A stretch of DNA of 35,733 nt from Reclinomonas americana ATCC 50394 (GCA_048213135.1 PS015609.1:31442-67174); one strand, 5' to 3'. Counted from the first letter of the stretch, positions 3,645 through 35,733 are shown. Numbers and translations: made by a program. Notes: generated by a model from the sequence alone, not told the origin.

Positions 3645-5623
3645 ATGATCGACTCGCTGTTTGTCATCTCCACCACGGGGTACGTGTCTCACTAACACAC
3701 GCGCACGCACGCACTTTATTTCAGTGTTATTTGTGCGAGATGGTCATGGACATGCTCTTCTCTCTCTTCTCTCTCTCACTCTCTCTCTTGTGTGTGACTG
3801 TTTGCAGTGAGTTGGTGACAGAAAGGCACTGGTTTGGCACGGACCGATCGACCTTCGACTTGTTTTGGGCGGAGGCGGCCTCGTGCCCTGCGCGTGAGGT
3901 AATGAGTGANNNNNNNNNNNNNNNNNNNNNNNNNNNNNNNNNNNNNNNNNNNNNNNNNNNNNNNNNNNNNNNNNNNNNNNNNNNNNNNNNNNNNNNNNNN
4001 NNNNNNNNNNNNNNNNNNNNNNNNNNNNNNNNNNNNNNNNNNNNNNNNNNNNNNNNNNNNNNNNNNNNNNNNNNNNNNNNNNNNNNNNNNNNNNNNNNNN
4101 NNNNNNNNNNNNNNNNNNNNNNNNNNNNNNNNNNNNNNNNNNNNNNNNNNNNNNNNNNNNNNNNNNNNNNNNNNNNNNNNNNNNNNNNNNNNNNNNNNNN
4201 NNNNNNNNNNNNNNNNNNNNNNNNNNNNNNNNNNNNNNNNNNNNNNNNNNNNNNNNNNNNNNNNNNNNNNNNNNNNNNNNNNNNNNNNNNNNNNNNNNNN
4301 NNNNNNNNNNNNNNNNNNNNNNNNNNNNNNNNNNNNNNNNNNNNNNNNNNNNNNNNNNNNNNNNNNNNNNNNNNNNNNNNNNNNNNNNNNNNNNNNNNNN
4401 NNNNNNNNNNNNNNNNNNNNNNNNNNNNNNNNNNNNNNNNNNNNNNNNNNNNNNNNNNNNNNNNNNNNNNNNNNNNNNNNNNNNNNNNNNNNNNNNNNNN
4501 NNNNNNNNNNNNNNNNNNNNNNNNNNNNNNNNNNNNNNNNNNNNNNNNNNNNNNNNNNNNNNNNNNNNNNNNNNNNNNNNNNNNNNNNNNNNNNNNNNNN
4601 NNNNNNNNNNNNNNNNNNNNNNNNNNNNNNNNNNNNNNNNNNNNNNNNNNNNNNNNNNNNNNNNNNNNNNNNNNNNNNNNNNNNNNNNNNNNNNNNNNNN
4701 NNNNNNNNNNNNNNNNNNNNNNNNNNNNNNNNNNNNNNNNNNNNNNNNNNNNNNNNNNNNNNNNNNNNNNNNNNNNNNNNNNNNNNNNNNNNNNNNNNNN
4801 GCTCCCCTCTCGCTCTCCCCTCTCGCTCTCCCCTCTCCTCACTTCTCCCCCTTACCCTCTCCTCCCCTTCCCCCTCCTCTTCACAGTTTCGTCCTGGTGC
4901 TGGAGGAGTACCTCGGCGACACCTTCAGCGAGGAGCAATTGCGCGAAAATTTTGTCACATTCTTCCAGGTCACCGACGAAATGCTCGACAGTTGCGCCTT
5001 GTTCCTCCCCCCTTTTGCTCCTTCTCCCTCCACTCACTCACATCAACCCGCCCCTTCCGACAGGTGGCTACCCATTCACCACCGAGCCGAGCGTGCTCAA
5101 GGGCATTGTGCGACCGCCGACAATCCTCAACCGCATGCGCAACGCCGTCTCTGGCCGTGGGTACGTCTCTCTCATCCACAATCTCCTCTCTTTGCTTCAC
5201 ATCTCACACCATCACCAGCAACGTCAACACGGCGATCCCGGAGGGAACTGCTTCGGTCGTGTGGTGGCGCCGACCAGGCATCAAGCACTCCAACAACGAG
5301 ATGTACTTTGACATTGTGGAGGAGCTCAGTGCACTAGTAGACAGGTGTGTCTGCTCATGCACGCGGCCGTATCCGACCGACTGCTCTCTGACGCGGTCCG
5401 CTATGCACAGCAACGGCTCTGTGCTGTCATCAGAGGTGCTCGGCCGCATTCAGGCCAACTGCAAGCTGACGGGCATGCCGGATGTGTTGCTAACATTTGA
5501 GAATCCGGGACTGCTGGACGACTGCTCGTTCCACCCATGCGTGCGACACGCACGATACGAGCAGGACAAGTCGCTCTCGTTCATCCCGCCGGATGAGCCG
5601 TTTGAGTTGATTTCTTATCGGTT

Positions 5624-5722
<99 letters not shown>

Positions 5723-7585
5723 CTCCTCCTCCTCCTNNNNNNNNNNNNNNNNNNNNNNNNNNNNNNNNNNNNNNNNNNNNNNNNNNNNNNNNNNNNNNNN
5801 NNNNNNNNNNNNNNNNNNNNNNNNNNNNNNNNNNNNNNNNNNNNNNNNNNNNNNNNNNNNNNNNNNNNNNNNNNNNNNNNNNNNNNNNNNNNNNNNNNNN
5901 NNNNNNNNNNNNNNNNNNNNNNNNNNNNNNNNNNNNNNNNNNNNNNNNNNNNNNNNNNNNNNNNNNNNNNNNNNNNNNNNNNNNNNNNNNNNNNNNNNNN
6001 NNNNNNNNNNNNNNNNNNNNNNNNNNNNNNNNNNNNNNNNNNNNNNNNNNNNNNNNNNNNNNNNNNNNNNNNNNNNNNNNNNNNNNNNNNNNNNNNNNNN
6101 NNNNNNNNNNNNNNNNNNNNNNNNNNNNNNNNNNNNNNNNNNNNNNNNNNNNNNNNNTCTGCGTTCCCCCTCCCTCCCGTTCCCCTCTCCTTTCATCCCC
6201 TCTCTCCCTCCCTCTACCCCTTCCCCTCACTTCCCCCTTTCCCTCACTCCCCCTTTCCCTTCCGCCCTTTTCTCAGCGCCCGCGCCCCCGGCCAACTCCC
6301 CATCTACGTCAACCCACAAATCTCCTTCAACGACGGCGGCGGCCGCATCCACGTCATGGTCTCGTGCCGCCTGCTCGACCGAGCATTGGAGAATGTGGTG
6401 CTCACCTTCCGCCTGCCCGACGAGGTGCAGTGCTCACACACGCAGTGCATCCTCTCTCACACTCTCCCCCTGTTGCTCACTTTTCTGCACACAGGTTACT
6501 GCCGTCAACGCGACAGTCGATCAAGGCAAGCTGAAGTTCGACAGCAACACACACGAGGCCAAGTGGGAACTCGGCAAGCTCGTCGGCGGCAAGTCACAGT
6601 CGTTGAGCGGCACGCTGTCGACGGGCGGCTCGGTGCCTGACTCAACGGCGACCACCATGGTGGCCTTCAAGGTACGATCTCCATCCTCTGTCTCTCTTCC
6701 TGCTCCTCTTCAGTGCCATCTTGTTCCACTCCTGTTCCATTTCATTCTGCCTCCTTCCTGCTGCTGTGCGCACAGGTGAATCACTTTGTTGTGCGCTTAA
6801 AACTTAAACATCGTGGTGTCATCCCCTTCTCCTTCTTTCTTTCCACCCTCTATGCCGTCCAGGCGGGTGACATCCTCCCTGTTCTTCTTTAATGACTACC
6901 AGAGTGAAAATCGTCAATCGTTTCTCTGTCTCTCTCTCTCTCTCTCCCCCTCCCTCNNNNNNNNNNNNNNNNNNNNNNNNNNNNNNNNNNNNNNNNNNNN
7001 NNNNNNNNNNNNNNNNNNNNNNNNNNNNNNNNNNNNNNNNNNNNNNNNNNNNNNNNNNNNNNNNNNNNNNNNNNNNNNNNNNNNNNNNNNNNNNNNNNNN
7101 NNNNNNNNNNNNNNNNNNNNNNNNNNNNNNNNNNNNNNNNNNNNNNNNNNNNNNNNNNNNNNNNNNNNNNNNNNNNNNNNNNNNNNNNNNNNNNNNNNNN
7201 NNNNNNNNNNNNNNNNNNNNNNNNNNNNNNNNNNNNNNNNNNNNNNNNNNNNNCCCTCCCTCCTCTTCCCTTCTCTCTCTCTCTCTCTCCCTCCCTCCCT
7301 CCCTCCCTCTTCCCTTCTCTCTCTCTCCCTCCTCTTGCCCTCTCTCTCTCCCTCCCCCTCTTCCCTTCTCTCTCATTCTCTCTCTCCCTCCCTCTCCCCT
7401 TCTCTCCCTCTCCCTCCCTCCCTCCCTCCTTTGTTGTTTGCTCACCGACCCGCGCACAGATCCCACAAATCGCCGTGTCGGGTGTGAAGATCGAGAGCGT
7501 GAATCTGCCGGCGGAGACCTATCGCGTGTTCAAGGGAGTGCGATCCATGACCCGATCGGGCATTTACCAAGTGCGCACCGGTTGA
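3645..7585 (+). CDS. AP3M1: AP-3 complex mu subunit, multi-exon, interrupted by gaps
   Basis: Spliced translation reads MIDSLFVISTTG|ELVTERHW..., ENFVTFFQVTDEMLDS|GYPFTTEPSVLKGIVRPPT, WRRPGIKHSNNEMYFDIVEE, LDDCSFHPCVR..LSFIPPD and FK|IPQIAVSGVKIE..FKGVRSMTRSGIYQVRTG*. All visible introns are GT-AG. Confidence 0.92.
5626..5735. repeat. (CT)n/(CCT)n intronic microsatellite abutting an assembly gap, representative of many in the window
   Basis: Pure CT run. Similar CT/GA/CCT/GAGT tracts occur at about 8907-9020, 20400-20650, 29740-30180, 34297-34337 and 34970-35190, all inside introns. Confidence 0.95.
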
Positions 7586-7741
7586 GGTGGTTGTGGAGGT
7601 TGTTTTGCGATCGGTGGGGGGAAGTGACTTGAGAGATTGAAGGGGTGGGTGGATGAAGGAAAATGACGAAAAAGGGGGGAAAACTTCCATGAGTGTGTAC
7701 AAAACAAAACAACAACAGGCAAAAATAGGGCGAGAGTTTGC

Positions 7742-8907
7742 TCAAGCCGCCACGCCAGTGTTCTCCGCCATGGTGCAGTCATTCTCACAGAACGACTGCG
7801 CCGCCGGGCAAAACGCCGTGCAGTTGGCATCGGTGGCGCACGACGCCATCGAGCAGTACTCGTGCACATGCACGCACACCTTGCAGCCTGTGCGACAAAA
7901 CGTGTAAGTGCCGAAGAAGAGGGGAGAGGAAACAAAGAATGGCGCGTGCACGCAACGATCGCTGACAGTCTGCGACCAAAAGTCGATCTCCGCGGTCTCC
8001 ACCGGTGGCGACGCCGGTGCCATGGCCGTGGCATTGGCCACTCCAGTGCCAGCAGTCGTGGTGGTAGCCGCCGGAGCTCCGACCTCACGAATCTCCGCGG
8101 CCAGCTCGGCCGTCGTCACTGGCGGCACCGGCGCAGACACCGGCACCGGCATGGTCGTCGCACACTCGGTGCTGCAGCGCACCGACACAATGTGCACGCA
8201 CTCCAGATGATCACGCGCCGGCTCCATCATCGGCGGCGGTGGCGGTGGCGGAGGCATGCCAAAATCGCCTCCACGGTGGTGGTGATTGTGGTGGTGGTGC
8301 TGGTGCTCCTCACGCGCCTCCTGCTGCTGCTGGTGGTGGTGGCGACGATCGTGCGCATGGTGCGGGTGATGCTCACGCCACTGCGCGGGCATGGCATTCG
8401 GGTGGAGACCCTTGGTGCACAGGTGCCAGTCGTGCTGCACACACAGATCGCACGAGAAGTTGTCGGCCGCGTGGCAGGCCTCGTGCGGAGTTGGCAATCG
8501 GCGCAGCTGATCGTGATGGTGATGATGATCATGATGATACTGACGATGCTCGTGACGGTGGTGAGGCGCAGGAGGAGGCGGCGGCACAGCCGGCATGCCC
8601 TGAGGCAGCGGAGGCAGAGTCTTGGCGACGTGAGGCATGGTCTCCATCGCCGGCATTCCCTCCGGCAACGCCGGCACAGTCTTGAACACCTCCGGCAGTG
8701 TCGGGAGCGCCTTGGCCACCTCCGGCATGGTCTCCATCGGCGGCATTCCCTCCGGCAACGCCGGCACAGTCTTGAAGACCTCCGGCAGTGTCGGCAGCGC
8801 CTTGGCCACCTCCGGCATGGTCTCCATCGGCGGCATTNNNNNNNNNNNNNNNNNNNNNNNNNNNNNNNNNNNNNNNNNNNNNNNNNNNNNNNNNNNNNNN
8901 NNNNNNT

Positions 8908-10135: not shown

Positions 10136-10840
10136 GGGCGTGATTCGCCAGACACGGGAGCAGGTGTGTGAGTGTGTGAGTGTGTGAGTGTGTGAGTGTG
10201 TGTGCGTGAGAGAGAGAGAGTGGAGATCAGAAAAGGATAGGAGTGGACGCGAAGCACCTGCGCATGCGGAACAATGTGGGATGTGATGGAGTGCAAGCAG
10301 CAACATCCTGCCTCATGCACTTATTCACGAAGCAACATAGGGGCGAGGTGCGCTGCGAGATGTGCAAAAACTGACAGACACAGCGTGAGGAGGGACACGC
10401 TGCGAGCAGCGCGACGTCGGAGCTCTCGCGAAGTAAACCAGCTGCGTCCGTCTAGCGCACCTTCATGGCTCACCACAACAGCAACAACACGTCGTACATG
10501 TCGGTGTTGCCGGAAACCAGTTGGATGCACATCCTCCGGATCCTGTCTTGTCATCGAATTCTGGCTTGAACTCAAAGTCGACGTCCACCCTGCTGGCTAC
10601 AGTAGTGAACGCGGAAAGATCGCAGTGGCATAGACCATGCCCAGCTTGCAGCATCAGCCGACGTGGTCTGCAGCACTTCGCGAAGTCGAATCTGCTCGGC
10701 GTGCAATATTGTGCACTTCGTAGCCATCGCCTTTCCCATTCTTACGCCCCCCTCAGGCCCTTCTTTATGCTCTGTACACTATCGACATCAACGTGCATGC
10801 CGTCAACAAAGACTTCCGCACCTGTCCCACACTTCCGCTC

Positions 10841-13382
10841 ATGCACTTACTCGGGCGAGCGCGCTCCCTCCTGCTGGGCCCGCTCACCTCCTCCTGCACC
10901 TCCCTCCACCGCAGCATCTCCGACAGCGCCAAGGCCATTGTCCGTCGCGAGCGCGAGTGGCTCGACCACGCATCTCTCTTGCTCTCTCGCTGGCAAGTCG
11001 ACGCACGCTGGCAGTCAGAGGTGCAAGCCAGTCGCGCCAAGGTATGCACTGCTGCACATGCATCCCTCACATACCGTCTTCTCACACATGCACACGCGCG
11101 GGAAAAAAAAGCTCGACGAGTTATTCTTGATTGTTGTCTGTGGAGAAGTTGCGTTGTTGTTGTTTGCAGCTCCAACGCTGATTGCATGTCTCATCGCGTA
11201 CGCTCAGTGGAACAGTGGCAAGAGCTCACTGATCAACACGTTACTGCGTGGCGACTATGTCAAAGAGGGTTCGCTGCAGGTCACTGCTTGCATACACGCG
11301 CGCATGATTCTCAGCTGCTCTGTGGTAACAGGTGTGCTTCCGACCACCGATGCACTGTTCTTGATTCGACATGGTGAGCGCGTGCAGCACTGGGAGGGCA
11401 CTCCGGAGGTGGCCGGCAGTCGGGCACCGATTCACCTGACTGTGCCGTCGCCGGCGCTGGTGGATATGGTGGTGGCCGACACGCCCGGCGTGAATTCGAT
11501 TGTGAAGGGACACCAGGAGATCACTGAGCGAGTGATTCCGCGCTCCGATNNNNNNNNNNNNNNNNNNNNNNNNNNNNNNNNNNNNNNNNNNNNNNNNNNN
11601 NNNNNNNNNNNNNNNNNNNNNNNNNNNNNNNNNNTGTGGGGGGTTGCTCTCGCCCCGTCTTTCCCTGTGCATGGTTCTTTCGAGCCGACTCCATTCATCA
11701 TTGCTCCTTTCGTGTCTGGGTGTTTGCTTTCGCCCTTCTTTCTCATAGCTTCGAGACATTTAGCCTTTGGCGTTCCAGTAGTGTCTGGGTGTTTGCTTCG
11801 ACTTTTCTTTCCCTCTGCTTGATTCCTTGAGTTAATCATTGCTCATTTCATACGGGTTTGCTTTCGCCCCTTCTTTCGCTCTGCTTGGTTTCTTTGAGCC
11901 TACGACGTTCATCAGTGCTCCTTTCGTGTCTAGGTGTTTGCTTTCACCCCTTCTTTCTCTCTGCTTGATTCCTTGAGTTAACGTTCATCGTCGCCCGGAC
12001 TTTCGGAGGGTTGCTTCCTTCCTCTCGCTTAACTCATCGCCGCTCATTACCTAGCAGGTTTGCTTTCGCCCCTTTCTTTCATCTCGCTTGGTTCCTTTGA
12101 GTGCATCGGCGCTCCATTCGTGTGCGGGGATTTGCTCCACCTGTTCTTTCCCCCTTTTGGTTCCTGTGAACCAACCGTGTCTGTTTGTTGTCGGGTTTGC
12201 TGTCATTCTTCATTCATCTCCCCTGTTCCCTTTGCCTGAACGATGCAGGCCCCGAGAGATCCACCCGCTTGCCCGTTATCGCCGACGAATTCCAACTCAA
12301 CCGATCTCACCTTCTCTCGGATGTGGCTTCGGCCACGCGGCACGTGGTGGCTGCCTTTGACAAGAACAACGAGATGCAGAATTTGAACGAGTGAGTGTGT
12401 TTCACGAGTTTGCTGCCTCCATCGTCTCACCCATATGTGGAACGATTCAGTACCATTCACAAGGCCATCATCTCCACCCTGGCGGTGGAGGTCGGCGCCA
12501 TTGGTCTCGGAGTCATGGCAGTGGTGTTGTCGGCTTCGCTTTTCGATCCGTCGGGCATGGTTGCAGGTTTGCTGTTGTTGATGTTTACACGCAATCGCGG
12601 ATGAACGACGCTGACTCTTTCTCATCACCACGGGCATGTATTTGGCAGCTGGTGCCTTGGCTCTTGGCGGCCTCTACGTACTGCCGCACATGCGNNNNNN
12701 NNNNNNNNNNNNNNNNNNNNNNNNNNNNNNNNNNNNNNNNNNNNNNNNNNNNNNNNNNNNNNNNNNNNNNNNNNNNNNNNNNNNNNNNNNNNNNNNNNNN
12801 NNNNNNNNNNNNNNNNNNNNNNNNNNNNNNNNNNNNNNNNNNNNNNNNNNNNNNNNNNNNNNNNNNNNNNNNNNNNNNNNNNNNNNNNNNNNNNNNNNNN
12901 NNNNNNNNNNNNNNNNNNNNNNNNNNNNNNNNNNNNNNNNNNNNNNNNNNNNNNNNNNNNNNNNNNNNNNNNNNNNNNNNNNNNNNNNNNNNNNNNNNNN
13001 NNNNNNNNNNNNNNNNNNNNNNNNNNNNNNNNNNNNNNNNNNNNNNNNNNNNNNNNNNNNNNNNNNNNNNNNNNNCCACCCGTCTCATTCTCACTCTCTT
13101 TTCCCCTTTCATGTGTGTGCTCATCTGGCTGGCCAGGCCGACTTTGAGAACCGCTTGCTGGATGTGCGGGCAAAGCTGCGCACGACACTTCGTGAACAGT
13201 TCGACTCGCAGCTGCAATTGTCGAGTGAGGAGATACGCAACGCAGTGTTGCCGTACACACGATTTGTGGAGAGTCGTCAGATGGCCGCCCGCTCCGACCA
13301 GGAGGAGTTTGTGGCGCTCCAGAAGGGTCTCGCTGGCCTTAAGGAGGACATTGAGAGGACTTTGCAAAGCACCTTGCAGTAA
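10841..13382 (+). CDS. FZL-like / bacterial dynamin-like GTPase with a possible mitochondrial presequence; middle part lost in gaps
   Basis: Spliced LDELFLIVVCGE|WNSGKSSLINTLL..KEG|VLPTT (G1/G2) and DTPGVNS (G3). The C-terminus has the hydrophobic hairpin AVEVGAIGLG..AGALALGGLYVLP and the motif IRNAVLPYTRFV. The N-terminus MHLLGRARSLLLGPLTSSCTSLHRSIS is Arg/Ser/Leu-rich and has no acidic residues. Confidence 0.8.
11700..12105. repeat. Degenerate intronic tandem repeat, about 6 units of about 65-75 bp
   Basis: The core gtttgctttcgccc(c)ttcttt..tctgcttg(a/g)tt(c)cttgag recurs within the dynamin-like gene intron. Confidence 0.75.
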
Positions 13383-15874: not shown

Positions 15875-15934
15875 GAGCGCGCGCGAACAACAAACAAGTG
15901 ATTGAATTTTTCCTCACTCTTTTAATCTTCAACA

Positions 15935-17724
15935 ATGTGAGCCGCCACAACTCATCCTTCCCTCTCACTGACACTCACTGTCTCTCTCTCTCTCTCACAC
16001 ACACACAGGGGCGCAGGTCAATCTGTGAAGTTGGACGCACTGGCGAATGTCGACGACGTGAAGACCAAATGTGCGTGTTTTTGTGTTCCATTACTCAACT
16101 CACACACACACTCACTCACACTCACACACAGTGGGCGAGGATGCTGTGGCGGAGATGCACGCCACCTTCACTGCGCTGGCCAGTCGTCGTGGAGAGCGTG
16201 AGACCATGTTGAGTGGAGAGTTTTTCCCGCGCTCTCTCTTTTGTGTCTTACTCTTTGTCTCTGTGTGTGTGGCAGCACTGAGGCCGGCTTCCTGTCCATG
16301 CTTGAGGAGATCCCGGCAATGGCCGCGGCCACCAAGGTGACTCAATAAGTGTCGCGCACGCTCACTTGTTTTTGTTTGCTGATATGGCACATATATCATT
16401 CTTTCACAGGATATGCTCAAGGTCGGTGCTGCATCTTGTGTCGTTGTTGTTGTCTTCTGCGAGTTCAATATGTGCGTTGTGCAGCTCATGTTCAATGCCA
16501 TGGACCTGGACGGCGATGATATGTACATGTCGCTGTTTGTCTGTCATTGTTGCTGTGAGTGCTGACTTGTGTGTTTTTTCGTGCACGAGTGTTGGATTTC
16601 AATGGTGCATGCGTGTCTGTGTATGCTCATGGTGTGCGGTGATGCTGATGGCTCACTGGCGCGTCGTGGCAGAGTTCCTCACTGGCATGTACGTGGTGAC
16701 GGCGCCGGAGGCCGGTCGCGAGAAGATGATGCTGATGTTCCGCAGTTGCGTGCCAGCTTGATGTGCCAAGTGTGTGTCGTGCGGCGGCAGCTGATGATGG
16801 AGTGGCAGTCTTCGATGCCAACCGCGACGGCTTTGTGTCCAAGACCGAGGCCAAGAAGATCTTCAAGGTGGCCATCAACATGGCGCAGTCTGTCATGGTG
16901 GCCATGATGCAGGGCATGGTGAGCAGTGGGCGCGGCGTGGCGTGGCGGGTGATGTGCTCTCCTACCGCTCACACACTGCGATGCAGATGAGCATGTCGGC
17001 GGCGGAGGCCAAGCGCGCTGTCAAGGCCATGATGCCGGCGGTCGACGAGATCGTGGACTCGCTCTTTGCCAAGATGGTTTGTTTTGACGTCGCGGCTTGT
17101 TGGTGGATTCTATCTCTCCCCTTCCCTTCTTGCCTCGTTTCCTTCACTGCATGGGTTCCCTATTGAGCTTTTCTTTCTCTCCTCTCGACCTGCACTCCTG
17201 CTTGTAAGTGGCAGATCTGCGTTTGCACTGCTGCACCGAAGAGCACATGCACAACGGGATCAGCATTTCAGTCGTTCTTTCTTCCGCTCTTTCCTTGACC
17301 ATTCACTCCTCACCTTTCCTCGCTTGTGCGCGCAACTGAAGCTATCCGATCTGCGCTCGCACCGGCACATCTGAGCGCAACAAAAAAAGCGTCCTTCTCA
17401 CACCATTCACTCCTCGCGTCTCCTCGCTTGTCCACAACTGATGCATCGCTTGTGCAGAGAGCACATCTGAACACTGCAGAAGCGGTAGCTCTCCTCGTTC
17501 CTCCACTCCTTCTTTTCCATTCACTCCTCACCTTTCCTCGCTTGTGAGCGCCGTTGAAGCAATCAGATACATTGCAAATCTGACCGCTTCCCCTTCTCCT
17601 TCAGGACACCAACCAAGACGGCAAGATCTCCCTGGAGGAGTGGCTGAGCCAGCCCGAGTTCGAGGACGAGAAGGTCGTGTCGCTGTTGGGCTCTCTCGGA
17701 CTCATGCAGTCGTCGTCGAGCTAG
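15935..17724 (+). CDS. N-myristoylated EF-hand calcium sensor (NCS/calcineurin B-like), 11 exons
   Basis: Spliced translation starts MGAGQS and contains EF loops DLDGDGVLDFNE, DANRDGFVSKTE and DTNQDGKISLEE. It needs 12-nt (16410-16421) and 18-nt (16587-16604) microexons and an AT-AC intron at 16519-16586. Confidence 0.85.
17290..17550. repeat. Degenerate intronic repeat, 3 copies about 105-115 bp apart
   Basis: ccattcactcctc...tcctcgcttgt occurs at about 17299, 17403 and 17517, and gcacatctga is also repeated. Confidence 0.7.
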
Positions 17725-17815: not shown

Positions 17816-20800
17816 ATGTCTGTGCGCATTGCTATTGATCGCGGAGGCACCTTTACGGATGTGTATGCCGAGTTGCCTGGAGGAGTGGTGGTGGTGGAAA
17901 AGTTGCTCTCTGTCGACCCTGCCAACTACGCCGATGCGCCCACGGAAGGTGTGGATAAAGTGCATTCTCTCTCTCACTCTCACTCTCACACATATGCGTG
18001 CTCTCTCTGTGTGTGAGGAAGTGTGCGTGCATTCGTGTGCGTGCATTGATTGATCCGATCATGCATTCATTCAGAGAGATCAGACAGTGTGACACACACA
18101 CACGCACACACANNNNNNNNNNNNNNNNNNNNNNNNNNNNNNNNNNNNNNNNNNNNNNNNNNNNNNNNNNNNNNNNNNNNNNNNNNNNNNNNNNNNNNNN
18201 NNNNNNNNNNNNNNNNNNNNNNNNNNNNNNNNNNNNNNNNNNNNNNNNNNNNNNNNNNNNNNNNNNNNNNNNNNNNNNNNNNNNNNNNNNNNNNNNNNNN
18301 NNNNNNNNNNNNNNNNNNNNNNNNNNNNNNNNNNNNNNNNNNNNNNNNNNNNNNNNNNNNNNNNNNNNNNNNNNNNNNNNNNNNNNNNNNNNNNNNNNNN
18401 NNNNNNNNNNNNNNNNNNNNNNNNNNNNNNNNNNNNNNNNNNNNNNNNNNNNNNNNNNNNNNNNNNNNNNNNNNNNNNNNNNNNNNNNNNNNNNNNNNNN
18501 NNNNNNNNNNNNNNNNNNNNNNNNNNNNNNNNNNNNNNNNNNNNNNNNNNNNNNNNNNNNNNNNNNNNNNNNNNNNNNNNNNNNNNNNNNNNNNNNNNNN
18601 NNNNNNNNNNNNNNNNNNNNNNNNNNNNNNNNNNNNNNNNNNNNNNNNNNNNNNNNNNNNNNNNNNNNNNNNNNNNNNNNNNNNNNNNNNNNNNNNNNNN
18701 NNNNNNNNNNNNNNNNNNNNNNNNNNNNNNNNNNNNNNNNNNNNNNNNNNNNNNNNNNNNNNNNNNNNNNNNNNNNNNNNNNNNNNNNNNNNNNNNNNNN
18801 NNNNNNNNNGACAGGGGTGCAGGCGTCTCTCTCTCTCTTGATACCTCTCTCTCTCTCTCTCTTCTTTTTGCTATCTCCCCAGTCTTCATTCTCTCTCATC
18901 ACTTTCTAACTCTCCCCCTCCTCCCTCACTCTCTCTCTCTCTTCACTTTCTCACTATCCCCCCCCCTCCCTCTCTCTCTCTCTTGTGCACTCACACGCGA
19001 GCGGAGCGCAGAAACCAAGCGTGGTGTCGGGTCGGGAGGTGCGCGAGACGCAGGGTGTGAACGGAGAAACAGTGCAGATCATCCAGCCACTGGAGGAGGA
19101 GCAGCTGCGTGCGGATCTGCGACGAGTGCTGGAGAGCACGGAGATTCGAAGCTGTGCGGTGGTGCTGGCGCACGCGTATGCGTTCCCGCAGCACGAGATT
19201 CGTTGCGGTGAGGTTGCGCGCGAGGTCGGCTTCACGCATGTGTCGTTGTCGCACGAGATTATGCAAATGGTGCGCCTGGTGCCGCGTGGGCAGACCACGG
19301 CGGTCGACGCCTACTTGACGCCGATTATCCACGAGTATCTGCGCGGCTTCCGACAAGGTTTCAAGAACGAACTGGCTGTTGCGTTGCGATGAGAAACGAA
19401 CGGTGATGGTGATCAGGGGTATTCACTCTGTGCATGCAGGGCGTCAACGTGCTGTTCATGCAATCCGACGGTGGTCTCACATCGGCCAACGATTTCCGCG
19501 GCTGCCGTGCCATCTTCTCGGGGCCAGCTGGTGCGCTGCGAGTTGATTTTTTTTTTTTTGGTCGAGCTGCTATGTCGATGAACCCACTCAACTGTGTATG
19601 TGTGCAGGCGGTGTCGTCGGCTACGCGCTGTCGAGCTACAATGCCGAGTCGCAACAGGCGGTGATTGGTTTCGACATGGGTGGCACGTCGACGGATGTGT
19701 CGCGCTACCATGGCACATTCGAGCACGTCTTCGAGGTAGAGACGGCTGGCGTGACTCTGCAGACGCCCCAGTTGGATGTGCAGACAGTGGCGGCTGGAGG
19801 TGGCTCCAAATTGCACGTTCTCGAAGGTGGCATGCTGGCTGCGGGACCCGACAGCGTCGGTGTGTGTTGTGTCCGTTCGTTTTCTCCTCTACTCTGCCGG
19901 GTCTCACTCACCCCCCGGCATTATGAAGGCGCACATCCGGGACCAGTGTGCTACCGCAAGGGTGGCGAGTTGGCCGTGACCGACGCCAACATTGTGCTCG
20001 GTCGCATCGTCCCCGAGTACTTCCCAGCCATTTTCGGCCCGCACAAAAACGAACCGCTGGACGCGGCAGGCGCTCGTCGTGCCTTTGAGGAGCTCCTGGA
20101 TCGCGTGCGTCATTTGCTACCGTCGTCGATTCACACGGTGGAGGAGCTGGCGTCTGGTGCGCATGATTGTAGGGCGAGAGCACTCTTTGTTTCCTTTGTT
20201 TGTTTATTTGGCTCTCGCGTGCGGAGCATTTTTTGAGCGTTGACGTTCCTTGCTCTTTCTCTTTCTATTTCGTATGAGGCTCTATCTCTATCTGTCTGTG
20301 TCTCCTTTTTCCATTCTTGTACTTCTTCGTCGTGCTTCTTGTCCTCCTCTTCTTCCGCTGCTCATACTCCTCCTCCTCTACCAACTTCTTCTGCCTCGTC
20401 TACGTCTTCTTCTTCTTCTTCTTCTCCTACTCCTACTCCTCCTCCTCCTCCTCCTCCTCCTCCTCCTCCTCCTCCTCCTCCTCCTCCTCCTCCTTCTTCT
20501 GTTCCTTCTTTGCTCTCTTTCTTCTTCTTCATCATGTTCTTCTCCTCTTTCTCCTCCTCCTCCTCCTTCTCCTTCTCCTTCTCTTCCTCCCCTTCCTTCT
20601 CCACCTCCTCTTTCTTCTTCCTCTTGTTCTTCCTCTCTTTTCCTCCTCCCCACTCACCTCACCTCACCTCACCGGCAGGATTCGTGCGCGTGGCCAACGA
20701 GACCATGGCGCGTCCGATCCGCAACATGACGGTGGCCAAGGGCTACGACGTTGTTACGTGTGCTTTTTATCACGTTGCGCACTGCCTAGTATTGCTCACG

Positions 20801-22607
20801 GTGTCCGCGTGCGCAGCGCGAACATGTATTGTCGTGCTTTGGTGGAGCTGGCGGGCAGCACGCGTGTTCCATTGCCCGTGATCTGGGCATTCGAAAGGTG
20901 TTTGTGCACCGCTACGCCGGCATTCTGAGTTGCGTCACAGTGGCCACGTGCGATCTCAGTAATACCTCTCACTCTGCGAGAGTAGGTGCGTACGGCATGG
21001 CCTTGGCCGACATTGTAGAGGACGTGCAAGAGACGTGTCCGTGTGTCTACTCGGAGGCGTCGTTGCGCGACACGCTGGAGCCGAAACTCAGCGAGCTCCG
21101 TGAGCGAGCCGTGAGCGCGCTGGTCGCCAAGGGTCACGTGCGCGACTCGATTCGCACCGAGGTCTGGCCTCCGCATTTCTTCGTCGACTGTCCGCTCATC
21201 TCTCACTCTCATTTCGCATTGCAGGAGTACATCCACTTGCGATACCGTGGCACCGATCATGGCATCATGACGGCGCGTCCCGCTGTCGGCGTAACCTATG
21301 AGGAGGCGTTTGTGGAGAGTTACCGCAAGGAGTTTGGGTTTGTGCTGCCCACTCGCGACATCCTGGTCGACGATTGCCGCGTGCGAGCCATGGCCAACTC
21401 GAGTGGTTTCTCGCTCTCCAGTTGCGTTGTGCTTTTTCTTGTCAGTCAGTCAGTCAGTCACGTGCAGGCGTTTTTGAAGCGGCTGGTGGACGCAGGTGGC
21501 CAAGACGTACACACTCCGTTCCTGCCGGAGACCACTGTACCCGAGGGAGAGGCAGTCAAGCGGGTCTCGGTTGAGCCGCGTTCGGTGACCAGCACTTTCT
21601 TCCCGAGCACTGGGCGGTACGTCTGAGCGTACACACACACGAGAGACCAGGTTGTTTCCTTCTAGTCACCTCTGCTTTGCTGCAGAGTTGAGATCCCCGT
21701 GTATGTGCTCGATGCCATGATTGCGGCGCGCTCTGCGGCCGGTGACGCTTCGTCGTCGTTGGTGCGCGTGGAGGGCCCATGCATTGTCATGATGGATACG
21801 TGGTGCGTGCGTGGAATGGACGTCGTTGATGCATAGAACATGGACTCTCCTCATTCGCACACAGCACTGTTGTGGTGGAGCCGCGATGCACTGCCTCGCT
21901 CACTGTGGCTGGCAACTTGCAACTGGATCTGGATTACGAAGGCGCCGAAAGCGGTGCTCATCACGCGTCTGCGCATTCTGCAGTCGCCGATGATGTGTGC
22001 GATCCGAGTTGCGAATTCCCTCCTTGTTCCGCAAAATCTGTAGTCACTGTGCTGGTGCCTCATGCTCGTTGTGTGTCTATGTGCAGTCCTGCTTTCCATC
22101 TTCTCCCATCGCTTCATGGGCATTGCGGAGCAAATGGGCCGAACGCTAGAGCGCACCTCCATCTCCACCAACATTCGTGAGCGTCTCGATTTCAGCTGCG
22201 CGATTTTCGACGTTGCGTCTCACTCTCACTCTCGAGCATCAATTCGTCGTGCTGAAGTGCATCATCTGTGCAGCCTGCCGGTGGACTGGTGGCCAATGGT
22301 TTGTGTGCTTTACGCAACTGTCGAGTCATTCCATGTTCCTCACAACGCACTGTACAGCTCCCAACCTTCCTGTACACCTCGGCAGCATGAGCGAAGCGGT
22401 GCGATGGCAGATCAAGCATCTCGGTTCGCTTCTGTTTCCGAAGTCGGCACAGAAGGACTGCTTGACTGACCGCGCTCCGCAGGCGACAGTTGGACCGATG
22501 AAGTCATCCTCACAAATCATCCGTGGGCCGGTGGCTCGCACTTGCCCGATTTGACCGTGATCACTCCGGTTAGTTCTCCACACAGTACTCAACCAGTCCA
22601 ACCGCTC

Positions 22608-22893: not shown

Positions 22894-24961
22894 CCCTTTG
22901 TGAGAACAGGTGCGCTCCAACGGCAGTGTGGTGTTTTATGTGGCTGCGCGAGGCCACCACGCTGACATTGGCGGCATTCAACCGGGCTCGATGCCGCCGT
23001 TCTCGCAGACGCTTGCCGAGGTTTGTTGGTCATTTCCAGGTGCTTTGCGCCGTGTTCTCATTTTGCCTGCGCAGGAGGGACTGGCTGTCGAAAGCGTGAT
23101 GCTGGTCAAGGACGGTGTCTTCCAGGAGGAGACCATTGTCGGGCTGGTAAGCAGTCGGCAGGAGGTGCCCACCTGTTTTGTTTGCCGCTCACGTGCGGCT
23201 CTGCACAGTTGCGCGAGGCTGGTTCGCGAACCATTCCCGACAACCTCAGCGACTTGCATGCCCAGGCGGCGGCCAACAACAAGGTGCAGTGGCACAACTG
23301 CGAGAGTCTGCGTCCCCGTCCGCCAAGCGCACCTGATGTTTTCGTCGTCGCCACACGCATAGGGCATCCAATTGCTGCAGCAGCTGATTGAGGAGTACTC
23401 GTTGCGACGCGTCCATCGCTACATGCACTTTGGTGAGTGAGCGAGTGAGTGAGTGGGCGTCTATCGACAGCGTCCTAACACAGTTCCTCATCGCAGTGCA
23501 ACGAAATGCGGAGCTGTGTGTGCGAGCCATGTTGAAGCGGTTGGCTGAGCGGCACGGCAAGCCGGTGCAGGATCCATCGGGCGCCGTTTCGTCACATTCT
23601 CGTCATTTTCGCGGTCGGAGAACCTCTTTCTCATCTCGTGGTGTGCAGGTGTCCACTGTGGCAGAGCTGGCGGCCACCGACTCAATGGATGATGGCACAG
23701 TGGTGCGTTTGCCTTTCCGCAAGGGCGTGATGTGTGCAGATGCTGACTTGTGTGTTGTTTGCAGATTTGCATCTCCATCAAGGTCGACAAGAACGACGGC
23801 AGTGCCGTGGTGGATTTCAGTGGATGCGGTCCTCAGGTTCTCGGCAACACCAACTCACCTCGCGCCGTGTGCGTCTCAGCTCTCCTCTACTGTCTTCGCT
23901 GTCTGATCGAGCAAGACATTCCACTGAACGAAGGTGAGGCTGGCAGTCGGTGGGACTGGCGATGTTAATGCGCTGATTGCACAATGTGTAGGATGTTTGA
24001 TCCCGGTGCGCATCATCTTCCCCTCGTACGCCTCGATTGTGGCGCCGTCCAAGACGGCGGCCGTCGTCGGCGGCAATGTGCTCACTTCGCAGCGTGTGAC
24101 GGACGTGATCTTGGTTGCGTTGCGCTGCATATGCCTGTCTGGTGCACGCCGCGCGTCTCACACCACGTGTAGCACGCCTTCCAAGCCTGCGGTGCCTCGC
24201 AGGGTTGCATGAACAACTTCACCTTCGGCAACGAGCGGTTCGGCTACTACGAGACCATTGCTGGCGGAGCAGGTGCCGGGCCCACGTGGGACGGCTGCTC
24301 GGGTGTGCAGGTGCACATGACCAACACGCGCATCACCGACGTGGAGATTATGGAACGGCGGTACCCGGTGCTGCTCCGCCAGTTTGCTTTGCGCCGAGGA
24401 TCGGGTGGCACCGGACTCCACCACGGTGGAAATGGAGTGATTCGGTGCGTGACGGGTGAATGCTGTCCATTCATTTTGCAGTGCATTGTTGACACGCTTT
24501 GCGCAATGCATAGCGAGGTCGAGTTCCTCGAGGTGCGCCACTTTTGACATGTCTGCTCTTGTGACTTGCTGAGACTTATTTTGTTTTGTAGCCGCTTCAA
24601 ATGGGCATTCTCTCCGAGCGCCGTGCTCTCGGTGTGTGTGTGTGTGTGGCGCCGCACCGCGCTCCGCGCATTGCTGCGATGATGTTTCTCATCTCTTCTT
24701 TCCCGTGTGGTAGCTCCCTATGGGCTGGCCGGTGGCGGTCCCGGCGAGCGCGGACTGAACCTGCTCCTCCGGCAAGAGGACGGCGTCACGATCAACATTG
24801 GCGGCAAGGCCTCGCTCCGTGTGCACCCAGTTACGCGCGCCGTACGCATCGTTGCATGCAGATTCGTGCTCACAGCCACACATAACTCTCTTTTTTCGTT
24901 GCAGGGCGATCGAGTGCGCATTCACACTCCAGGTGGCGGTGGCTACGGTGTTCCCTTGTAG
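17816..24961 (+). CDS. OPLAH: 5-oxoprolinase (ATP-hydrolysing), at least 28 introns, part lost in a gap
   Basis: Motifs [90 protein letters not shown] and TPGGGGYG are collinear with eukaryotic oxoprolinase after removing short GT-AG introns. Confidence 0.96.
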
Positions 24962-27883: not shown

Positions 27884-29008
27884 ATGATCACAAAGGTGCG
27901 TGCGTGCGTGGCATCCTTCTTGTCTGTTCCCGGTGCGTCTCACCGCTGGCGGGTGGCGCAGATCTTCAGGGGACACACTGCTGATGTGATGTCTGTCGCC
28001 GTCACTCCCGATGGTCGTTACATTGTGAGTGGCAGCAATGACCACACAGTGCGTGGGTGGTCACTGGTAAGTGGAGAAGAGGAGTGGTGGCTGGAAGGAC
28101 ACACTGACTCGGTGAATTCCATCGCCGTCACTCCCGACGGTCAGCACTTTGTCAGCGGCAGTGATGACGGTACTGCACGCGTGTGGTCATCGACGAGTGG
28201 CAAGGAAGTGCATCAGTTGGGAGAACACACTGGCATGGTGTACGTGCAGTCTGTCGCCGTCACTCCCAATAGTATGCACGTGGTGAGCGGAAGCTTTGAC
28301 AAGGCCATACGAGTGTGGTCTGTGGCGACTGGCGAGGAAGTGCGACGGTTGGAGGGACACACTGGCTCCGTATACTCGGTTGCCGTCACCCCCGACGGTC
28401 GACACGTTGTGAGTGGGAGTCGGGACGAGACCGTGCGACAGTGGTCGCTGGCAACCGGCGAGGAAGTGCGACGGTATGAGGGACACGCAAGCTGGGTGTC
28501 GTCTGTCGCCGTCACTCCCGATGGCCAGTACATTGTGAGCGGCGGCGGCGACAAAGCAGTGCGAGTGTGGTCTCTGACAAGCGGGGAAGAAGTTCTGCGA
28601 CTGGAAGGACACGTTGGAGCGGTGTCGTCTGTCGCCGTCACACCTGATGGTCAGTTTGTCGCGAGTGGGAGTTACGACAAGACTGTGCGAGTGTGGTCAC
28701 TGGTGAGTGGCGAGGAGGTGCGGCGACTGGAGGCACACACTATGTGGATATTCTCTGTTGCCGTAACCCCCGATGGTCAGCGCATTGTGAGTGGAGACAG
28801 TGACGACACGATACGAGTGTGGTCCACGGCGCGTGCACTTGCCCACGAGGAGCTCTCGGTCGCACGTTCGGTTGTCCAGGCCATCAACGAGCTCCTTGTT
28901 GACGATGATGATCGCGACTGGATCCTGGTTGATGTCGTGCTGCGGTGTTTTGTGCTGGAGGATGCAGAGGTGGTGGAGCGTCGGGCCCCGGGGTGGCATG
29001 AAGCATGA
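27884..29008 (+). CDS. 7-blade WD40 protein (copy 5); exon 1 27884-27895, intron 27896-27961
   Basis: MITK|IFRGHT..., seven WD40 repeats and the same tail. The upstream intergenic DNA resembles that of copy 4, indicating tandem duplication. Confidence 0.88.
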   Translation: MITKVRACVASFLSVPGASHRWRVAQIFRGHTADVMSVAVTPDGRYIVSGSNDHTVRGWSLVSGEEEWWLEGHTDSVNSIAVTPDGQHFVSGSDDGTARVWSSTSGKEVHQLGEHTGMVYVQSVAVTPNSMHVVSGSFDKAIRVWSVATGEEVRRLEGHTGSVYSVAVTPDGRHVVSGSRDETVRQWSLATGEEVRRYEGHASWVSSVAVTPDGQYIVSGGGDKAVRVWSLTSGEEVLRLEGHVGAVSSVAVTPDGQFVASGSYDKTVRVWSLVSGEEVRRLEAHTMWIFSVAVTPDGQRIVSGDSDDTIRVWSTARALAHEELSVARSVVQAINELLVDDDDRDWILVDVVLRCFVLEDAEVVERRAPGWHEA

Positions 29009-29396: not shown

Positions 29397-31864
29397 ATGA
29401 GTGGCACCTCGAAACTTGACTATCTCAAGCGATACACCAGTGGCGGCTCTGAGCCCACAGGCAGCAGCGACTACATTGAAAAGAAGAAGAAAAAGAAGAA
29501 GAAGACAGCGACAACAACAACAGCAGCAAAGGCAACGAAATGCATCTCTCTCTCTCTCTCACTTCTCTCTCTCTCTTTCACTCATGTATGCATGTGTGTG
29601 TGTGTGCATGTGTGTATATGTGTGTGTGTGTTTAGACTGCCAACTTGGTGATTCACGATGAGGACTGGTCGTGGAATGTTGCCAGAAAGAAGGATGCAGA
29701 GGAAGAGATCGAGGCTGAGTTGGATGAAGGTTTGTGCATTCTTCTCTCTCTATTCCTCTCTCTCTCTCTCTCTCTCTCACTCTCTTGCATCTCATACATT
29801 CTTCTTGCAACTGGATCAACGCTGCATTCCCTCTTGTTCCTCCTTATTTCCCTCCTTTTCTCATCTCTCTCTCCCTTCTCCTCTCCCTCCCTTCTCCCTT
29901 ACTCCCTCCCTCCCTTCTCCCTCGCCTCTTCTCCCTCCCTTTCCCTCCACTATCCCTCGTTCTCCCTGCCTTCTCGCTGCCTTCTCTCTCTCCTCTCTCC
30001 CTCTCCCGCTCTCCTCTCCCTCTCTCCCTCCTCCTTCCCTCTCTTCTCCCTCCCTTCTCCCTCCCTTTCCCTCCCTTCTTCCTCCCTTCTCCCTCCCTTC
30101 TCCACTCTCTCTCCCTGCCCTCTTCTCCCTCCATTCACCCTCCCTTCTCCCTTCTTTCACCCTTCCTTCTCCCACTCCCCGCAGACGAGAGACCAGTGGT
30201 AGTGAACGCGGATGAGTTCGGCTTGGACCAGAAGCTGCGACCGCGACGCCGAGATGCGGGCGAGGACGACGAATCGCGAGAGTGGCATCGTCCGCGTGCC
30301 CCAATCATTGAGGATGGCAGTGGGTGGCAGGATGTGTCGGGAGTTGCGCCTGCATCCCTCTGCCCTCTTGCTTCTGTTATCATTGGTGCTCATTTGCCTA
30401 TGGCACGCGTAGTCGAAGGCCAGTCCCATGGATGAGGTGCGCGACGGCCGTCACTCACCGTCTGTCTTGCTGCTATCTCACGCCCTTCGCAGGATGAATC
30501 ATCGCCTCCACGTCGGCGGCCGCGTCACGATTCACCGGATGTTGCGTTGTCTGGTTGATCGTTCCTCCTCGTCGCCTGCGTTGCTCATCTCGCCTCGCCG
30601 CAGGCCTCGGTCGCCGACCAGTCGCCACCGCGCAGGCGACCGCGACACGACTCGCCCGATCCCACAGCCGCCGCAGACTTGTCGCCACCGCGGCGGCGAG
30701 TGCGTCACGATTCGCCTGATGTTGCGCTTTCTCATCGCACTCCTCCATCCCCTCCCTCCTCCTCCCTCTTCGTCACTCACTCCGTTGGCATCTCACAGGA
30801 GAGCACTGGCGCGGCTGGTGATTTGTCTCCACCACGTCGGCGGCCTCGACACGACTCACCCGATCCATCTGCCGACCTGTCACCCCCTCGCCGCTCCGCT
30901 CCTGCGTCGGCATCGGCGCGGTCGGGTGACGGAAGCGGTGACTTGTCGCCGCCGAGGCGGAAGGCGGTGGTGGATGGCGACGGAGGTGCGTTGATTGGGC
31001 TCCTCTGTTTTCCATTCTTCCTTTCGCCAACCATTCGCCGCACAGACCTGTCGCCGCCACGCAAGCGTGCGCGTGTGGACGCAGACGGCGACTTGTCACC
31101 GCCACAGCGCCGACAAGGCCCGTCGTCGTCGTCGTCGTCGTCTTCGGGCGCTGCATCTTCGCGCCGCCCCGTGGAGGCTGCGGTCATCAAGCAATCGGAA
31201 GACATGCGGGGATTGCGCACCGCCGAGCAAATCAAAGCCGATGGCGAGAGGAGGCGTCAGGCTGAGCGGGATCGCTTGGCCAAGGTCGACGCGTCGGCCA
31301 GCGGGCAGGGCGCAGACACGGTCTATCGCGATCGACATGGTGCGGCGCGCCACCTTCCATTTTCTATCATCACTTCTGTGGCCCACTGAAAGAAAACCAC
31401 CGCTCGCAGGCCGCCGCATGGAAATGTACGAAGCCATGCTCAAGCAGCAGCAGGGCGAAAAGGCGACGAGTGACGACGCGCACTTGGAGTGGGGTGGCGG
31501 TCTGAAGCAGAAGCAGGATAAGGAGGACGTGCAGTCGGCCATTCGCGCCGAGATGAGTCGTCCGTTTGCGCGCTACGCCGACGACGCCGAATTGGACACC
31601 CACCTACGCAGTCAGCAGCGCTTCGACGACCCCATGGCGCGCTTCTCCAGCTCCGCCGCCGGCGACAGCAAATCGAAAGCCAAGGACAAGAAGCCGCGCT
31701 ATCGCGGTCCGCCTCCCCCGCCCAACCGCTTCAACATCCCGCCAGGCCACCGCTGGGATGGCATCGACCGCAGTAACGGATTCGAGAAGCGGTACTTTGA
31801 GATCATCAACCAGCGCAAGGCCATTGGCGATATCATGTACGCCTTTAACAGCGAGGATATGTGA
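29397..31864 (+). CDS. BUD13: Pre-mRNA splicing factor BUD13/CWC26 (RES complex), 9 exons
   Basis: N-terminal LDYLKRY, RHDSPD/LSPPRR repeats, TVYRD, and the C-terminal PPPNRFNIPPGHRWDGIDRSNGFE..SEDM*. Confidence 0.93.
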
Positions 31865-34650: not shown

Positions 34651-34998
34651 CTCTGCAACTCACTTGTCCTGAACCATATTCTGGATGTTTCTGTTCCTTC
34701 TCTCTCTCTCACTCTCTCCCTCTCTCTTTGAATTCAGTTGTCCTCAACCTCCTTCTTGATCTCTGTCCCCTCCCCCTCTCTCAATCCCCACGCACCTTAT
34801 GCAACGCCTCGCGCAACACCTGTCCATCGGTGATCACTCGCCCACCAAAGATGAACTTCATCTCCTCCGGCAGTGGCGCCTTGTCGGCATTCTGCGCACG
34901 CACTCGCTCCTTCACCTCGCGCACAGTGTCGTCCGCAGTGGCCTCCACCACGAACTCAGTTCTGCAAGGAAGAGAGAGAGAGGTGAGGGAGAAGGGGA

Positions 34999-35030
<32 letters not shown>

Positions 35031-35341
35031 AAGGGAGGGAGGGAAAGAGTGAGTGAGTGAGTGTGTGAGTGAGTAAGTGTGTGTGTGAGTGAGTGAGTGA
35101 GTGAGTGAGTGAGTGAGTGTCTGAGTGAGTGACTGAGAGAAACAGAGATTGAGAGAGACAGTGAGTGAGTGAGTGAATGAGTGAGTGAGTGCGCATGTGA
35201 AAGAGACACACTCACACACACTCACACACAATGAGAGTGTGATGACGCGTGTCACTGGTGCGAATGACATGTGTGACTGACACACAAACACACACACACA
35301 CACACACTCAACTTGTTCGCCAGGCGCACAGTCAACCGCAT
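31981..35341 (-). CDS. HERP/HERPUD-like ubiquitin-like-domain membrane protein (ERAD-type), multi-exon
   Basis: UBL domain MRLTVRLANK|TEFVVEATADDTVREVKERV..MKFIFGGRVITDGQVL..|..IHVV, a YMQQYMQWY motif, and C-terminal hydrophobic segments LLIKLGLLIFVF..QRYVLL..FVASLLP. Confidence 0.75.
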
Positions 35342-35603
35342 TCCTCGCTCACACAACAACGCAAAGAGAGAAAGAGTGAGAAAAGAGTCCCAGGACAACT
35401 CTGAAGTTGTTTTCTTTTGTGCAATGAGTGAAAGGAGTGCGCGCATTCGTGACAAGCTCTCTCAAGCACACAGTCAACGCATTCCTCGCTCACACAACAA
35501 AGAGAGACAAGCAGAGAGAAAGAGTCACAGGACAACTCTGAAGTTGATTTTCGTTCTTGTGCAATGAGTGAGAGGAGTGCGCGCATTCGCGGCAAGCTCT
35601 CTC
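35327..35603. repeat. Tandem duplication (about 137 bp x2) of the head-to-head intergenic region including both start codons
   Basis: 35327-35463 and 35469-35603 share cacagtcaac..cattcctcgctcacacaacaa..ggacaactctgaagttg..gtgcaatgagtga.aggagtgcgcgcattcg..aagctctctc. Confidence 0.9.
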
Positions 35604-35707
35604 GCGTGCGACAACACACAGTGTTGGTGTTGAGTGGAAAAGGCGGAGTAGGCAAGAGCACAATCACTGCGCAGTTGGCGGTGGCCTTGGCTGCTGCAGG
35701 GCATAAT
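35564..35707 (+). CDS. NUBP2: Mrp/NBP35-family P-loop ATPase, CFD1/NUBP2-like; first exon only
   Basis: [48 protein letters not shown] contains the deviant Walker A motif and lacks the N-terminal Cys cluster of NBP35. An intron follows. This exon is not in the supplied ORF track. Confidence 0.8.
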
Positions 35708-35733
35708 GTTGCGCCTCAGAGAGAGAGAGAGAG

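Follow-up and report, generated by a model that had tools for sequence, protein, structure and literature searches.

RESULTS

A second class of donors displaced by one base

Introns in a 35,733-nucleotide (nt) stretch of Reclinomonas americana ATCC 50394 DNA (GCA_048213135.1 PS015609.1:31442-67174; hereafter the window, meaning the whole stretch analyzed) use two classes of 5' splice site, or donor: a common one and a second one whose consensus is displaced by one base. We confirmed this one-base-displaced class as a real sequence pattern. The window is eukaryotic nuclear DNA of ~55% G+C that contains 10 runs of N totalling 3438 bases, and its introns are numerous and short, mostly 54-85 nt. 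Positions are counted from its first base, strand is given as + or -, and a slash marks the exon-intron boundary.

A sequence-only reading of the window had proposed about 70 introns, about a quarter of which carried the displaced donor. We rebuilt 61 GT-AG introns, 44 ordinary and 17 second class, which lowers the total and leaves the share of about a quarter intact. Thirty-eight of them, in the AP-3 mu, dynamin/FZO-like GTPase, and 5-oxoprolinase genes, are backed by homology, and the other 23 are backed by reading frame and motifs. We wrote a protein-profile-to-DNA spliced aligner for the analysis, which handles split codons exactly and was run either with any end dinucleotides allowed (free mode) or with GT..AG only (GT-AG mode); neither mode has a preference at -1 or at +3 to +6. 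The 5-oxoprolinase profile was built from 30 homologues out of 120 listed (best identity 58%) and the AP-3 mu profile from 15, and the dynamin-like homologues, 150 in number, came from an exhaustive search, a word-index search with the exon having given none. All boundaries are protein-level inferences from this one 36-kb draft window. The count excludes the donors at 3899 and 17960, the first Bud13 intron, the intron at 16522-16589, a proposed donor at 23586, a candidate at 21380-21500, and the minus-strand WD40 genes.

The 18 hexamers that the earlier reading had assigned to the second class were all present where it had placed them (GTTGCG 13 times, GTTACG twice, GTTGAG twice, and GTTTCG once), and A, C or T precedes all but one of the 18, the exception being 24114 with G. 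As donors, 17 were borne out, three of these (7956, 30721, and 35708) as plausible calls, while 23586 was unsupported. The class is spread across 8 genes, as had been claimed. Ordinary donors (n = 44) read GTNYG, with an exonic G at -1 in 41 and a G at +5 in 39; second-class donors (n = 17) read GTT[AG][CA]G, with G at +6 in all 17 and A, C or T at -1 in 16. Three ordinary donors had been said to lack the exonic G, and these proved to be the only ones among the 44: the intron at 12391..12450 (+) begins a/GTGAGTGT (GTGAGT), and the donors at 15937 (+) and 16071 (+) read t/GTGAGC and t/GTGCGT.

The predicted dependence of donor class on the -1 base was pronounced. G and non-G preceded 41 and 3 ordinary donors vs. 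1 and 16 second-class donors (Fisher P = 7.6e-11, 61 introns), and within the 38 homology-backed introns the same association held (28 G and 1 non-G for ordinary donors vs. 1 and 8 for the second class, P = 1.6e-6). Position by position, -1 is G in 41 of 44 ordinary donors and A8 T6 C2 G1 in the second class; +3 is G27 T9 A6 C2 and T17, respectively; +4 is C24 T11 A8 G1 and G15 A2; +5 is G in 39 ordinary donors and C15 A2 in the second class; +6 is T25 C12 G6 A1 and G17; and +7 is G17 T12 C11 A4, with no base dominant, and T11 C5 A1. A G placed at -1 would, among 16 second-class introns, change the amino acid at 10 and be silent at 5, the remaining one already having G.

The hexamer is rare among GT dinucleotides at large: GTT[AG][CA]G accounts for 43 of the 2198 + strand GT sites and 24 of the 2026 - strand ones vs. 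17 of the 61 donors. HGTTRCG occurs 41 times in the window vs. 23.3 +/- 4.9 times in shuffled sequence, a count reached by 1 of 100 shuffles. As a control, we examined 80 oxoprolinase loci of other organisms, obtained by a metagenome scan at 63-80% identity over one conserved exon and none of them close enough for a comparison of orthologous introns; the hexamer was found in 1 of 103 donors called there, which speaks against its being a general property of donors, the figure being a rough one in that many of the calls are probably spurious.

One-base superposition of the two classes

The two classes had also been said to superimpose on a one-base slide, and a matrix built from the ordinary donors bears this out, giving second-class donors +4.4 bits when shifted by one base and -5.0 bits when unshifted. 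The 44 ordinary donors score 7.9 +/- 2.7 bits (leave-one-out) under their own matrix, and the shifted second-class score still includes a penalty for the T at the old +1. Two positions outside the class definition behave similarly: second-class -1 (A8 T6 C2 G1) resembles ordinary -2 (A21 T11 C8 G4), and second-class +7 (T11 C5 A1) resembles ordinary +6 (T25 C12 G6 A1). Both resemblances are predicted by a shifted register, and a coding constraint at -1 may explain part of the second-class pattern there.

Position of the cut

Since moving both intron ends by +1, to a TT start, alters the messenger RNA (mRNA) only where a base other than G follows the acceptor, the location of the cut can be read from encoded residues at some junctions. 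At 22008, the GT-AG boundary yields I (DP-I-LLSIF) in a column that is I in 21 and V in 9 of the 30 homologues, and the +1 shift yields S, found in 0 of 30. At 22212, GT-AG yields P, the residue in 25 of 30 homologues, and the shift yields A, found in at most 2 of 30. At 11148, GT-AG yields the W of GEWNSGKS, and the shift would place G at the third position of the P-loop, where it occurs in 0 of 150 homologues; these carry GEFNSGKS (54), GEFNAGKS (47), and GEWNAGKS (1) among other forms, and, apart from two motifs, all have F, Y, V or W in the third place. Two further junctions lean weakly toward GT-AG (20753, R rather than G; 24114, H rather than D). The residues at 22008, 22212, and 11148 thus match the homologues if the cut precedes GT, as the earlier reading had it, and not if it falls one base later, which supports the view that second-class introns would be cut at GU despite a consensus displaced by one base.

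Second-class introns in the homology-backed genes

In GT-AG mode, the aligner selected the 5-oxoprolinase donors 19378, 20753, 20929, 22008, 22212, 24114, and 24830, and their positions in free mode differed by no more than a few bases. Free-mode matches were exact at four second-class introns in total: 4991-5063, 11148-11207, 22212-22273, and 24114-24172.

The AP-3 mu intron at 4991..5063 (+; a/GTTGCGCC...GACAG, 73 nt, phase 1) was recovered exactly in both modes, and a protein (P0121) that is 84% identical over one AP-3 mu exon spans this junction without an intron. P0121 is 311 amino acids long and comes from a public assembly contig of 2437 bases; it lacks introns 4991 and 5161 and retains an intron at 5345. 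It resembles an incompletely spliced transcript from a relative, which would mean that a related organism has public sequence data. In the dynamin/FZO-like GTPase gene, the intron at 11148..11207 (+; a/GTTGCGTT...CTCAG, 60 nt, phase 0) splits the P-loop, and free alignment to one homologue (P0157) was exact.

The 5-oxoprolinase gene carries seven second-class introns, all on the + strand. Reading through the intron at 19378..19439 (t/GTTGCGTT...TGCAG, 62 nt) meets a stop at codon 4. The intron at 20753..20816 (t/GTTACGTG...CGCAG, 64 nt) is set by GT-AG alignment; an alternative donor 3 nt upstream at 20750 (GTTGTT) keeps the frame just as well, with a difference of one Val codon. At 20929..20985 (a/GTTGCGTC...AGTAG, 57 nt, phase 1), all 30 homologues share the junction Ser. 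Of the remaining introns, 22008..22086 reads a/GTTGCGAA...TGCAG (79 nt, phase 1); 22212..22273 (c/GTTGCGTC...TGCAG, 62 nt, phase 0) and 24114..24172 (g/GTTGCGTT...TGTAG, 59 nt), the latter the sole one after G, were exact in both modes; and 24830..24904 (a/GTTACGCG...TGCAG, 75 nt) was placed by GT-AG alignment. At 19378-19388 and 24114-24124 (+), the second-class donor is doubled in tandem (GTTGCGTTGCG), and introns 20753, 30541, and 24830 have another TTGC(G) slightly further in.

The donor proposed at 23586 (c/GTTTCG) was not supported. With the same acceptor, 23565 scores 2667 vs. 2641, a gap that equals the cost of a 7-residue insertion and is not decisive, and both alignment modes chose about 23563-23565. 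We prefer the ordinary intron at 23565..23648 (+), g/GTGCAGGA (G/GTGCAG), and regard 23586, alone among the 18 donors, as probably wrong. Of the earlier interpretation, the two classes, the link to -1, the one-base superposition, the cut before GT, and the spread over 8 genes were supported, and the proposed mode of recognition is plausible.

Second-class introns in the remaining genes

Two introns of the EF-hand gene belong to the class, at 16208..16275 (+; t/GTTGAGTG...GGCAG, 68 nt, phase 2), which has the GTTGAG form, and at 16745..16808 (+; a/GTTGCGTG...GGCAG, 64 nt, phase 1). The latter junction gives MFR^IFDANRDG, and its unspliced reading stops at codon 5. The model that contains both introns is open over 218 amino acids and has three canonical EF (calcium) loops.

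Bud13 is itself a splicing-factor gene (RES complex), and it holds three introns assigned to the class (30343-30798), all on the + strand. The intron at 30343..30412 (a/GTTGCGCC...CGTAG, 70 nt) is required by the frame of SPPRRR..HDSPD repeats, in a poorly conserved region that lies outside homology support. At 30541..30603 (t/GTTGCGTT...CGCAG, 63 nt), the frame likewise needs an intron, and read-through meets a stop at codon 5. The intron at 30721..30798 (t/GTTGCGCT...CACAG, 78 nt) is in frame and stop-free; its intron-like features and its parallel to 30541 are what make it plausible. Introns 30541 and 30721 both come after a ...RHDSPD repeat unit and may be duplicates.

The ubiquitin-like gene has an intron of the GTTGAG form at 34962..35312 (-; a/GTTGAGTG...TGCAG, 351 nt, phase 2). 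Splicing it yields MRLTVRLANKTEFVVEATADDTV, with DT at residues 21-22, which we take to be ubiquitin's spacing, and the Pfam ubiquitin match lies on the next exon. A proline-rich gene has a candidate intron at 7888..7956 (-; c/GTTGCGTG...CACAG, 69 nt) that is in frame and stop-free; what speaks for this uncertain call is the motif together with an intron-like composition. The candidate donor at 35708..35713 (+; t/GTTGCGCC) in a NUBPL/ParA-type ATPase gene is also uncertain, its intron exceeding the window; the Pfam ParA match ends nearby, and read-through beyond it ceases to resemble the family.

Apart from their donors, these introns have ordinary U2-type features. All 16 complete second-class introns are GT..YAG; 15 are 57-79 nt long and one is 351 nt, and CTNAY is present 16-36 nt upstream of AG in 12 of the 16. 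The ordinary oxoprolinase introns are 54-84 nt long, except for two of 341 and 522 nt.

Genes of the window and other introns

Genes were called by Pfam on stop-to-stop frames and refined by later work. They comprise a DUF4291 gene (1-783, from Pfam), AP-3 mu (3645-7585, +), the proline-rich gene (about 7745-8836, -), the dynamin/FZO-like GTPase gene (about 10640-13380, +), two WD40 reading frames (13454-15913, -), the EF-hand gene, of N-myristoylation type (15935-17724, +), 5-oxoprolinase (17817-24961, +), three tandem WD40 genes (25150-29005, +), Bud13 (29397-31864, +), the ubiquitin-like gene (about 34795-35341, -), and the start of the NUBPL/ParA-type ATPase gene, which reaches the window end. 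The three tandem WD40 genes are closely similar and 7-bladed; each has a first exon of 4 codons (ATG...AAG) followed by a short intron with donor g/GTGCG, at 25163, 26498, and 27896. Upstream of the ubiquitin-like gene, 35333-35560 (-) is a tandem duplication of ~100-nt units, each ending ...gtgtgagcgaggaatgcg(g)ttgactgtg, and the ATG-containing start of that gene is therefore present twice.

The final 5-oxoprolinase model has 26 introns and a single open frame from 19051 to the stop at 24961. We set three ordinary introns by inspecting the homologue alignment, moving 22573-22904 to 22569-22909 and 23180-23217 to 23147-23208 and adding 21617-21685, and we discarded two aligner introns (21564-21773 and the 30-nt 21954-21983) as variable-region artefacts. 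Codon-usage-based ab initio intron finding was dropped, as it recovered only 1 of the 26 oxoprolinase introns. In the variable region at 21380-21500 (+), an extra intron is likely, the model score rising when 75-93 nt are removed; candidate donors are a second-class a/GTTGCGTT at 21421 with acceptor 21495, or donors at 21403 and 21406.

Several other introns resisted placement. Donors at 17960 (+; a/GTGCAT, after oxoprolinase exon 1) and 3899 (+; g/GTAATG, in AP-3 mu) have their acceptors in assembly gaps. For the first Bud13 intron (29397-29635, +), we found no convincing in-frame GT donor; the candidates are g/GCAACG at 29532 (GC-AG, with G at +6) and t/GTATGC at 29586 (which would take a CT repeat into the exon). 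The 68-nt intron at 16522-16589 (+) in the EF-hand gene has no GT-AG or GC-AG solution that preserves the canonical EF loop DLDGDDMLDFNE, which is partly encoded by a 15-nt mini-exon at 16590-16604. The frame demands TG..AG (A/TGTACA...CACGAG) or GT..GT with the intron moved one base rightward; if one assembled T is surplus, a normal A/GTACAT intron results.

DISCUSSION

A proposed shifted or bulged U1 register

The most likely explanation, to which we give slightly better than an even chance, is that these are GT-AG spliceosomal introns with two forms of 5' splice site, the second displaced by one base and read by U1 in a shifted or bulged register. The common form is G/GUGCGU and the second, in about a quarter of introns, is H/GUURCGU, whose +1 G occupies the usual place of the exonic G and whose later G falls at +6 rather than +5. 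In U1 small nuclear RNA (snRNA), the 5' end would pair with second-class sites one base out of register or, in an alternative that is equivalent on the intronic bases, would pair with one U after GU bulged out (GU-U-GCGU); the cut would remain set at GU by later U6/U5/Prp8 steps. The second form would let introns persist where the last exon base cannot be G. We infer all of the snRNA pairing described here. The bulged-U register fits the intronic bases equally well, yet by itself it would leave the missing exonic G unexplained.

A broader proposition is that this lineage routinely reads one donor motif in two registers, genome-wide, with U1 (and probably U6) out of step with cleavage in about a quarter of introns, perhaps helped by a second U1 variant or by altered U1C/Prp8/U5 contacts. 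This strikes us as quite possible, though a little short of an even bet. If it is true, recognition and cutting would be uncoupled as a normal mode, and introns could sit behind any exon base.

Several points weigh against this explanation. A single 36-kb window with 10 gaps supplied the whole sample; for 23 of the 61 introns the backing is frame and motifs, and the oxoprolinase introns 21617, 22569, and 23147 were reset by eye after the aligner had misplaced them. The rows of the comparison are partly dependent, the three WD40 first-intron donors being paralogues and 30541 and 30721 possibly duplicates. Because the class was defined post hoc, the matrix comparison has some circularity at +3 to +6. 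The case for pairing draws on the U1 5' end that is conserved in other eukaryotes, and not on the host's own U1; an Rfam scan found no U1, U5 or U6 gene within the window, with 0 matches at the gathering score and 7 weak ones at E up to 1, all to microRNA or small nucleolar RNA models on low-complexity DNA. Even when shifted, the helix would be weak: at the old +1 a U would face C, and a C would face a pseudouridine. The EF-hand intron at 16522-16589, for which no GT-AG solution was found, points either to single-base assembly errors or to splicing odder than the model. Finally, the preference for C at +5 is strict (15 of 17), more so than at the corresponding ordinary position (C in 24 of 44), which displacement alone does not predict; this stricter GCG hints at something beyond displacement, such as a variant U1 or a contact with U6 or a protein.

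Other explanations

One alternative is a dedicated variant U1, or other variant small nuclear ribonucleoprotein, complementary to GUUGCGU in the normal register, giving two matched U1/donor systems. Second-class donors vary less than ordinary ones (13 of 17 are GTTGCG, 15 have C at +5, and all 17 have G at +6), and this uniformity would favor a dedicated perfect match over a weak, mismatched, shifted helix. The flanks at -1, -2, and +7, however, look like those of the ordinary class after a one-base slide, as one U1 in two registers predicts with no new component, and we consider a dedicated U1 unlikely.

We find it similarly improbable that there is no register shift at all and that the pattern reflects ordinary exon-intron compensation, in which donors without the exonic G need deeper contacts (U6 at +5 to +8, or proteins) and the motif happens to be UUGCG. 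There is precedent in PMC8283771, where human -1G and +5G offset each other and sites without -1G pair more at +5 to +8, and a -1 G would change the protein in the 10 of 16 second-class introns noted above. Compensation would nevertheless leave unexplained why the motif is the ordinary motif moved by exactly one base and why G at +5 falls from 39 of 44 to 0 of 17. The three ordinary donors that lack -1G (GTGAGT, GTGAGC, and GTGCGT) compensate in the ordinary way, so that this route exists here too.

An artefact, whether a one-base boundary error, hand-annotation bias or assembly errors that add a T, is very unlikely. In its favor, this draft assembly contains 10 gaps, a GT-AG reading of intron 16522-16589 requires that one assembled T be wrong, and 7 of the 17 junctions yield identical mRNA when both ends move by one base. 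Against this, an aligner with no preference beyond GT..AG still selected the second-class donors, free runs were exact at four of the introns, and conserved residues at 22008, 22212, and 11148 reject a one-base move. Moreover, deleting a T from GTTGCG would not bring back the exonic G, and 17 identical errors are implausible.

A separate intron family, either U12-type (minor spliceosome) or a mobile introner with its own donor, is scarcely credible even though both kinds do show 5' ends that are sharply conserved in a minority of introns: the U12-type donor consensus is RTATCCTT, and 0 of the 18 proposed donors start RTATCC, all being GTT[GAT][CA]G; outside the donor, a CTCAC-like branch motif, and YAG, 15 aligned second-class introns have no sequence in common, with a mean column identity of 36%; and second-class lengths of 57-79 nt (except 351 nt at 35312) are like those of most ordinary introns.

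Significance

It has long been asked how the spliceosome sets the exact cut if U1 binds imprecisely, and mammals offer only a handful of odd sites on which to study this. An organism with a displaced motif in a quarter of its introns would be a natural system for such studies. In practical terms, gene finders with a single donor model would miss or misplace about a quarter of this host's introns.

Comparison with known systems

A full-text literature search, which would miss papers that present only a sequence logo, found no paper with this donor motif and none on a lineage rich in shifted-register donors. It is plausible that the one-base-displaced class, at its routine frequency, is a variant of the shifted- and bulged-register sites already described. 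Both registers are proven for human sites (PMC4856993). In the mammalian shifted register (Roca and Krainer 2009, via Tan et al. 2016, PMC4856993), the U1 pairs all move by one position and the cut stays at GU; the second-class introns are alike in keeping a GU start with the remaining consensus one base further in. They differ in motif, GUUGCGU here from a GUGCGU-type consensus, and in frequency: validated non-canonical registers together make up ~1.5% of 201,541 human donors (PMC4856993), whereas we count 17 of 61 introns in 8 genes, known here from sequence alone.

Human 5' splice sites also employ a register containing a bulge at +3 (or +2) (Roca et al. 2012, Tan et al. 2016, PMC4856993). 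GU-U-GCGU can be read in the same way, as GUGCGU plus one looped-out U, which would keep G+1 and U+2 paired. Unlike the expectation for a bulge, in which an exonic G should still help, -1 is G in only 1 of 17 second-class donors and resembles ordinary -2. The shifted and bulged readings nonetheless appear inseparable at the level of the donor sequences.

The human exon-end G is 82% conserved and compensates with +5G (Burge and Karlin 1997, and Carmel et al. 2004, via PMC8283771), and here, too, the last exon base is statistically tied to intron positions past +4. Human compensation consists of better matches in the same register, in contrast to the second class, in which G is at +5 in 0 of 17 and at +6 in 17 of 17. 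In tunicates, the GT/AG rule does not hold for 95% of introns in the genomes examined (PMC13326754). That lineage likewise departs from standard donor recognition, and the authors consider that U1 may act there in a shifted register; in the window, by contrast, GT-AG is kept and only the flanking consensus is displaced.

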